NCBI RefSeq assembly: GCF_003334335.1
Contig: NZ_QOWQ01000079.1
DNA: 4,361 bases
Direction: 5' to 3' (one strand)
Origin: Escherichia coli
GTDB taxonomy: Bacteria; Pseudomonadota; Gammaproteobacteria; Enterobacterales; Enterobacteriaceae
The translations under genes were made by a program, and so were the position numbers. This document shows, one piece after another, positions 1 to 945 of the stretch (its first letter is position 1; every line of letters begins with the position of its first letter). The notes beneath the pieces are model-generated. The model did not search any database. It was not told the DNA's origin and worked only from the letters and a program-made list of their open reading frames with translations.

Positions 1-945
1 TTTAAAGTGAAGCCTGAGGGCTGGGATAACCAGTGGAAGGGCGACGATGATTACCTGAAGTGGCTGGACCAGTGTCTTGCGCAGTTCTGGCGGGTGCTGA
101 AACCTGCCGGAAGTCTTTACCTGTTCTGTGGCCATCGCCTGGCGTCTGACATTGAAATCATGATGCGTGAACGCTTCAATGTGCTGAACCATATTATCTG
201 GGCGAAGCCGTCCGGACGCTGGAACGGGTGCAACAAGGAAAGCCTGAGGGCATATTTCCCCGCCACAGAGCGCATTCTGTTCGCGGAACATTATCAGGGG
301 CCGTATCGCCCGAAAGATGCCGGGTATGAGGCGAAGGGCAGGGCACTGAAACAGCATGTGATGGCCCCGCTGATTTCTTACTTTCGTGATGCGCGTGCTG
401 CCCTGGGGATAACGGCAAAACAGATTGCTGATGCCACAGGAAAGAAAAACATGGTGTCGCACTGGTTCAGTGCCAGTCAGTGGCAGCTACCGGACGAAAG
501 TGATTATCTGAAATTACAGGCGCTGTTTGCCCGGGTGGCAGAAGAGAAGCATCAGCGGGGTGAACTGGAAAAGCCCCACCACCAGCTGCTGGAGACGTAT
601 ACTTCACTGAACCGGCAGTATGCGGAACTGCAGAGTGAATATAAGCTTCTGCGGCGGTATTTTGGCGTGACGGCGCAGGTGTCGTACACGGATGTGTGGA
701 CGCATAAACCGGTGCAGTACTATCCCGGGAAACATCCGTGCGAAAAACCGGCAGAAATGCTGCAGCAGATAATCAGTGCGAGCAGTCGTCCGGGTGACCT
801 GGTTGCAGATTTCTTCATGGGGTCGGGTTCGACAGTCAAAGCCGCGATGGCGCTGGGGCGTCGTGCTACAGGCGTTGAGCTGGAGACTGAACGTTTTGAG
901 CAGACGGTCAGGGAAGTTCAGGATTTAGCCAGTCAGAACGGATGA
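1..945 (+). CDS. DNA methyltransferase, beta-class N6-adenine/N4-cytosine type (PF01555-like), 5'-partial. Frame 1 is open from base 1, so the true start and the catalytic (D/S)PPY motif are expected upstream of the window.
   Basis: Frame is open from position 1 to the TGA at 943-945. The C-terminal region carries the conserved 'HPCEKP' block followed by the AdoMet-binding motif I 'DLVADFFMGSGST', which is the beta-class arrangement with motif I C-terminal. The N-terminal 'FWRVLKPAGSLYLF' resembles the block that follows DPPY in this family. No restriction endonuclease partner is visible in the window. Confidence 0.8.
   Translation, partial: FKVKPEGWDNQWKGDDDYLKWLDQCLAQFWRVLKPAGSLYLFCGHRLASDIEIMMRERFNVLNHIIWAKPSGRWNGCNKESLRAYFPATERILFAEHYQGPYRPKDAGYEAKGRALKQHVMAPLISYFRDARAALGITAKQIADATGKKNMVSHWFSASQWQLPDESDYLKLQALFARVAEEKHQRGELEKPHHQLLETYTSLNRQYAELQSEYKLLRRYFGVTAQVSYTDVWTHKPVQYYPGKHPCEKPAEMLQQIISASSRPGDLVADFFMGSGSTVKAAMALGRRATGVELETERFEQTVREVQDLASQNG

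Follow-up and report, generated by a model that had tools for sequence, protein, structure and literature searches.

A window of 4,361 nucleotides of Escherichia coli DNA (contig NZ_QOWQ01000079.1) opens with the larger part of a gene encoding a β-class N6-adenine DNA methyltransferase (positions 1-945, plus strand), which very probably corresponds to a non-specific enzyme of the M.EcoGI/GII type, carried by a stx-less lambdoid prophage and presumably expressed late, silent in the lysogen and devoted to an anti-restriction function. The encoded protein shares a high identity with M.EcoGII, possesses both the helix-turn-helix (HTH) domain and the charged linker of this clade of enzymes, and is, as judged from five related loci, prophage-borne without any accompanying endonuclease.

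Reading frame and integrity of the gene

Frame 1 of the plus strand is uninterrupted from nucleotide 1 to the stop codon located at 943-945 and comprises 314 codons, its 5' end lying off the window; the ORF listing gives 7-945 because the first internal GTG was taken as the start. The deduced protein matches the Pfam family N6_N4_Mtase (PF01555, E=1.1e-36) over codons 10-302, i.e., positions 20-219 of the 221 positions of the model, and the PHROGs collection assigns it the generic label 'DNA methyltransferase'. No dedicated model occurs in NCBIfam, the best matches being generic adenine methyltransferase equivalogs, with a score of 83.8 bits versus a cut-off of 292. In five close relatives from phages and prophages (L001-L005), the full-length gene consists of 1059 nt and encodes an intact 'DNA methylase' of 352 amino acids. 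These relatives read DLIVTDPPY directly followed by FKVKPEGW, and the window therefore begins at the codon just past the catalytic DPPY motif; it carries the 3' 89% of the gene, the first 38 codons, DPPY included, falling 5' of its start.

Since those 38 codons are located out of the window, the possibility of an inactive remnant, either truncated or frameshifted upstream or catalytically dead, deserves some consideration, especially as some family members in the database are truncated or fused (for example P0003, P0005 and P0008-P0013, which match part of the query) and a proline conserved in close relatives is replaced by a serine at residue 266 of the full-length protein. Such a remnant is nevertheless very unlikely, since no stop interrupts the 314 visible codons, whose translation aligns gap-free to the intact 352-residue proteins of L001-L005, with 97-98% identity. 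In addition, all the conserved core residues of the visible part are retained in the family alignment, which comprises the window protein and 108 homologs selected after 1.84 billion representatives had been searched (307 clusters at E<=1e-30). Four substitutions are found only in the window allele (N98, S164, L254 and S266, in full-length numbering) and none of them occupies a column of the 109-member alignment that is invariant or 90% conserved; P266 itself is not highly conserved, being present in 56 of the 108 homologs. Nothing in the visible part of the gene points to a pseudogene and, judged from its relatives, the gene is presumably intact in the source genome.

Organization of the catalytic core

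A structural model of the methyltransferase was built with AlphaFold2 from the window protein completed with residues 1-38 of L002 and from the 108-homolog alignment (mean pLDDT 93.5, pTM 0.87). The N-terminal half of the Rossmann-fold catalytic core, which directly follows motif IV (DPPY), is encoded by nucleotides 1-294 (plus strand) and ends with the strand ERILFAEHY, as indicated by the alignment to the cores of M.BceJIV and M.RsrI and by pLDDT values of 95-98. The C-terminal half opens with the block HPCEKP (733-750, plus strand, codons 245-250), which aligns with HPTQKP of M.BceJIV and whose residues H283, K287 and P288 show at least 90% conservation, if not invariance, among the 109 family members. 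Motif I, FFMGSGST (FxGxG; 811-834, plus strand, codons 271-278), the S-adenosylmethionine binding site, aligns with FMGSGTT of M.BceJIV, and D308, F310 and G312 are conserved in the same 109 sequences. With respect to the order of the motifs, the central insert precedes FFMGSGST in the window, and in each of the five close relatives DPPY immediately precedes the position at which the window begins.

The helical insert and the charged linker

After the last strand of the N-terminal part of the core (codons 89-97, residues 127-135) and before HPCEKP (residues 283-288), the model displays a helical insert (325-645, plus strand, codons 109-215), which would comprise the target-recognition domain and the interdomain linker. 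Six helices are predicted at codons 109-120, 122-135, 139-146, 149-156, 166-185 and 197-215, corresponding to residues 147-158, 160-173, 177-184, 187-194, 204-223 and 235-253 of the full-length protein. The third and fourth of them (177-184 and 187-194) are arranged in the model into a helix-turn-helix, ITAKQIADATGKKNMVSHWF (409-468, plus strand), in a region where Pfam HTH_3 yields a weak match (codons 129-157, E=0.052). Further downstream, the segment EEKHQRGELEKPHHQL (541-588, plus strand, residues 219-234) may correspond to the 'highly charged linker' with which non-specific binding has been associated. It is mostly missing from distant relatives, as deduced from the low column occupancy of residues 221-230 (0.24 among the 109 aligned family members).

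A structural counterpart of the insert was found neither by sequence search nor by Foldseek among the structures of the PDB, where the matches are limited to the core: the solved β-class methyltransferases align only to residues 8-112 and 281-333 (codons up to 74 and 243-295), and the DNA methyltransferases matched by Foldseek reach TM-scores on the query of 0.42-0.56, again for the core only. The PDB contains no solved structure of M.EcoGII. In the published AlphaFold model of this enzyme, residues 1-134 and 260-349 make up a Rossmann domain and residues 160-237 an HTH recognition domain of four helices, completed by a long linker which is charged and partly helical; the linker does not occur in the site-specific enzyme M.PflMI, and the authors proposed that it is responsible for sequence-independent binding (PMC11551740). 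The window model matches this published model, which supports the view that the insert corresponds to the target-recognition region. The first-pass annotation, made from the letters of the window, had recognized a phage DNA methyltransferase at 1-945 and had placed a long insert, the probable target-recognition domain, at 'roughly codons 100-230', before the HPxxKP/FxGSGST region; the Pfam match, the phage and prophage relatives and the two models bear it out on all of these points. The peptide it quoted, QLPDESDYLKLQALFARVAEEKHQRGELEKP (codons 162-192, nt 484-576), covers the last helix of the recognition domain together with the charged segment EEKHQRGELEKPHHQL.

Relationship with the non-specific adenine methyltransferases

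The window protein and M.EcoGII are identical at 288 of 310 aligned residues, a figure of 93% that has to be taken as approximate, and probably slightly too low, because the reference sequence, read by machine from a PDF (Suppl. Table S1 of PMC11551740), contains evident transcription errors. For example, the printed sequence has H at residue 103, a position occupied by I, V or L in 108 of 108 natural homologs, and gaps occur in the alignment at suspected transcription errors only. The two proteins differ by about 20 substitutions, mostly located in the linker helices (QLLETYTSLNRQYAELQSEYKLL in the window protein versus QLVSTYSELNRKYMELLSEYKNL in M.EcoGII); the recognition domain and the linker together account for some 12 of them. 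Their C-termini also differ, QDLASQNG in the window protein and QDLIV in M.EcoGII, with 352 amino acids in the full-length relatives versus 349.

M.EcoGII methylates adenine whatever the surrounding sequence, modifying as much as 99% of dA in vitro, where single-stranded DNA, DNA:RNA hybrids and RNA serve as substrates as well (PMC5778455). M.EcoGI, with 333 of 349 residues identical to M.EcoGII (95%), is likewise reported as non-specific, and the methyltransferase of phage 1720a-02 was named by Murray et al. as very similar to M.EcoGII (PMC5778455). Homologs 92-93% similar to M.EcoGI/GII from Shiga toxin-producing E. coli (STEC) O111 have been assigned as 'nonspecific' (PMC6602927). At a greater distance, SUPREM, an engineered, reconstructed ancestor sharing 72% identity with the window protein, is still largely non-sequence-specific (PMC11551740). 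The nearest enzyme with a confirmed site specificity, M.PflMI (CCANNNNNTGG), is only 27% identical to M.EcoGII (PMC11551740). Because of these identities of 93%, 72% and 27%, the window protein is, as regards the METHYLTRANSFERASE question, placed well inside the non-specific clade.

A sequence-specific orphan β-class adenine methyltransferase, whose HTH domain would read a defined site in the manner of the distantly related M.PflMI, could be advocated from the HTH fold itself, which is typical of sequence-specific DNA binders, from the overall predicted structure, HTH recognition domain included, that M.PflMI has in common with M.EcoGII (PMC11551740), and from the dozen or so substitutions located in the recognition domain and the linker. 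It is improbable, however, in view of the remoteness of M.PflMI, which is devoid of the charged linker that the window protein keeps at full length, of the close identity of the latter to M.EcoGII, and of the non-specific behaviour retained by M.EcoGI and by ancestors down to 72% identity. By homology, the window enzyme would methylate adenine in essentially any context, as do M.EcoGI/GII and their homologs when expressed, a property demonstrated on those enzymes rather than on the window allele. The earlier opinion that the specificity could not be read from the sequence is accordingly the part of the first interpretation that has to be abandoned, in contrast to its recognition insert and its orphan, anti-restriction character, which are retained.

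Genetic context of the methyltransferase gene

In four chromosomal relatives, the genes succeed each other in the order DUF968, RusA, Q-type antiterminator, a 65-amino acid ORF, methyltransferase, tRNA-Ile/Arg/Arg, esterase, DUF1378, DUF826, holin and lysozyme. No restriction endonuclease gene is annotated on either side of the methyltransferase in the five close relatives L001-L005 and none is located downstream of it in the window, where the tRNAs, the STnc100 copies and the esterase gene follow, in agreement with the first-pass annotation. No endonuclease is thus adjacent to the methyltransferase as judged from the 3' side in the window and from the 5' side in the relatives. The hypothesis that the enzyme represents the modification half of a restriction-modification system, with its endonuclease just 5' of the window, would account for the best PADLOC label of the window protein, 'Type II methyltransferase' (PDLC03265, E=1.2e-163); the 5' flank of the gene is unseen in the window and, in L001, two uncharacterised genes of 178 and 342 amino acids (3731-5294, minus strand) occur between Q and the methyltransferase. 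It is extremely unlikely in view of the 5' neighbours in four related genomes, which consist of the 65-amino acid ORF and the Q-type antiterminator, plus a MazF-type toxin in L002, without any endonuclease; the two minus-strand genes of L001 match none of the PADLOC defence models, M.EcoGI/GII have been described as orphan enzymes (PMC6602927), and a context-independent methylase needs no cognate endonuclease. The orphan state and the probable anti-restriction role put forward at first reading agree with this context and with the anti-restriction role proposed by the authors of the M.EcoGII study (PMC5778455).

The slot that separates the methyltransferase from the Q antiterminator carries a variable cargo among the relatives. 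In L002 (strain JNEC-KY176), it contains an additional PemK/MazF-type toxin gene after Q (7853-8197, plus strand), with no annotated antitoxin beside it. PADLOC assigned neither the 65-amino acid ORF, nor the MazF-like gene of L002, nor the two minus-strand genes of L001 to a defence or restriction model, a single negligible match (E=0.0033) aside. The 65-amino acid ORF is conserved at the same position in L001, L002, L004 and L005; in L003 it is located at 2539-2736, 150 nt before the start of the methyltransferase. Its family searches gave no meaningful match, and it could encode a small DNA-binding protein or just represent the leader and terminator of the late promoter. Two terminator-like hairpins followed by a T run separate the antiterminator from the methyltransferase in L003, namely CCACCGGAAGGTGG at approximately 2395-2415 and GCCTTCAGTCCTGAAGGC at 2723-2740, the latter being a strong hairpin overlapped by the 3' end of the 65-amino acid ORF. 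The late promoter is not located, since, in L003, a sigma-70 scan of the interval from Q to the methyltransferase revealed no convincing promoter on the plus strand.

Downstream of the methyltransferase, three tRNA genes occur on the plus strand: a tRNA with a CAT anticodon (986-1061), identified as tRNA by Rfam, assigned to Met by ARAGORN and to Ile (ileZ) in related records, followed by tRNA-Arg TCG (argN, 1069-1145) and tRNA-Arg TCT (argO, 1159-1235), both identified by ARAGORN, Rfam and the annotation of L001. They constitute the ileZ-argN-argO set found before stx in Stx phages. Past the last tRNA, a consensus scan revealed a terminator-like hairpin, GGCTCGCTTCGGCGGGCC, followed by TTTT (1249-1266, plus strand), to which a terminator function is ascribed by inference. 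Another hairpin, considered in the interval from the stop codon to the first tRNA (about 949-982), was dropped, since shuffled sequences fold equally well (z=-0.89).

Two tandem copies of the prophage-borne STnc100 sRNA (Rfam RF02076) follow on the plus strand, at 1369-1577 (122.1 bits) and 1773-1985 (147.2 bits), both far above the gathering score of 47, and each of them ends with a terminator-like hairpin (1540-1567 and 1955-1974). The pair occupies the slot which, in L001, harbours stx2AB and a single STnc100 copy (8644-8859). Conserved stems are common to the two copies and the central stretch differs (about 1433-1460 versus 1837-1872), so that these variable stretches may represent distinct seed regions. 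STnc100 is related to the PasD sRNAs, according to a 2026 preprint (10.64898/2026.05.13.724894).

The next gene (2207-4189, plus strand) encodes a SASA-family esterase of 660 amino acids, which matches phrog_143 end to end (E=4.4e-302) and has no match in NCBIfam; its near-identical relatives are named either 'SASA family carbohydrate esterase' or 'DUF6645' in RefSeq. It appears to be a prophage sialate O-acetylesterase of the NanS-p type. Just past this gene, a weak Esr41-like Rfam match on the minus strand (4195-4269; 23 bits versus a gathering score of 102, E=0.36), which overlaps a minus-strand terminator-like hairpin (4215-4203), is probably due to chance or to a diverged relative. The window ends inside the next late gene, which belongs to the DUF1378 family in the relatives, and includes its start (4329-4361, plus strand).

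Expression and possible function

According to the published model, the Rossmann core, with its DPPY and FxGxG motifs, would flip out the target adenine and methylate its N6 with S-adenosylmethionine, whereas the helical HTH domain and the charged helical linker would hold the nucleic acid without reading the bases. By analogy with its close homologs, the window enzyme probably acts as a dimer. Because the gene lies, in the five close relatives, downstream of Q and of the terminator-like hairpins, and upstream of the tRNAs and the lysis genes, its transcription is expected to require Q-mediated antitermination, the gene remaining silent in the lysogen and being switched on after induction. The replicating phage DNA would then become heavily methylated, and the progeny would escape the adenine-methylation-sensitive Type I, II and III restriction systems of the next host.

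Observations on related enzymes are in line with a silent gene in the lysogen. The prophage gene of M.EcoGII is not expressed in the lysogen, M.EcoGI/GII gave no methylation signal in lysogens, and M.EcoGII is toxic when over-expressed (PMC5778455). The O111 homologs M.Eco95JB1I/II similarly gave no SMRT signal in lysogens (PMC6602927), and M.EcoMV, from ST131, was found transcriptionally inactive by RT-PCR. Since neither M.EcoGI/GII nor their homologs gave a signal in lysogens and M.EcoMV is inactive, a comparison of the methylomes of a lysogen and a cured strain would be expected to remain blank and hence uninformative.

The methyltransferase, the tRNA trio and the sRNA genes may share a late transcript, being adjacent and on the same strand in every close relative examined. 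In this respect, the activity of M.EcoGII on RNA and single-stranded DNA in vitro, taken together with the simple adjacency of the genes, raises the idea that the substrates of the enzyme during lytic growth could include packaging intermediates or RNA of the phage or the host (tRNAs, late transcripts), which seems highly unlikely. Coming back to the DNA of the phage as the substrate, the literature searched contains no paper on an enzyme of this type methylating virion DNA in vivo or protecting a phage from restriction, and nothing direct on the late expression of an M.EcoGII-type enzyme or on its in vivo target after induction. The hypermethylation of virion DNA, and the help it would offer to Stx-type phages across restriction barriers, represents a real gap in this literature.

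Distribution and significance

Over its full length, the window is 97-98% identical to prophage regions of five complete E. coli chromosomes. Its first part (1-1270) shares 96.5-97.3% nucleotide identity with phage 1720a-02 and the Stx2a-converting phages of the Stx2a_1447/WGPS2 type, the best phage match being Escherichia phage 1720a-02 (97.3%), and the methylase of the Stx2a phage Stx2a_1447 (L001) is 98% identical to the window protein. Among 5426 complete E. coli genomes, 2022 contain related DNA, the number of copies in a genome reaching 7. The host element of the methyltransferase is the late region of a stx-less, Stx-phage-like lambdoid prophage.

As a discovery, the window enzyme matters little, taking into account that its family is already characterised and very common in E. 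coli and that proteins 97-98% identical to it are already annotated in RefSeq. M.EcoGII itself is widely used as a chromatin-footprinting reagent, as described in several papers. The practical gain consists of a corrected annotation, 'unknown specificity' giving way to the prediction of a 'non-specific m6A methyltransferase, silent in lysogen'.

Comparison with known systems

The Rossmann core of the AlphaFold2 model resembles, by Foldseek against the PDB, that of the solved β-class enzymes CcrM (6pbd), M.BceJIV (8urk/9c3u), M.MboIIA (1g60), M.RsrI (1eg2) and M1.HpyAVI (5hfj). These enzymes share with the window protein the Rossmann core and FxGxG, and with its full-length relatives DPPY, and are readily matched both in sequence (phmmer E=2.4e-25 to 1e-14) and in structure (Foldseek probability 1.00, E=1e-17 to 1e-9). 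However, they are only 17-23% identical to the window protein, they all recognise specific sites, and none of them possesses a helical HTH insert.

Adenine methyltransferases with a relaxed specificity also occur in the α class, of which the promiscuous phage enzyme Hia5 is a member. The α-class enzymes exhibit an architecture distinct from that of the window enzyme, with the motifs in the reversed order, FxGxG being N-terminal and DPPY C-terminal. As far as the work of Drozdz et al. is summarized where it is cited in PMC5778455, an anti-restriction role has been proposed for such promiscuous phage enzymes.

Among phages, 1720a-02 and the Stx2a phages share with the window the order methylase-ileZ-argN-argO; the Stx2a_1447/WGPS2-type phages carry stx2AB after the tRNAs, whereas the window has an extra STnc100 copy at this place. 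The closest counterpart of the window enzyme is M.EcoGII, from a prophage of E. coli O104:H4 C227-11 (Murray et al. 2018, PMC5778455), which is similarly prophage-borne and orphan and displays the same helical HTH insert, the same charged linker and, as far as DPPY can be placed from the relatives of the window protein, the same succession of DPPY, recognition domain and FxGxG. M.EcoGI, M.EcoMV from ST131 and M.Eco95JB1I/II from O111 belong to the same clade and, according to the published figures, the window protein falls within the same range of identity as these enzymes.
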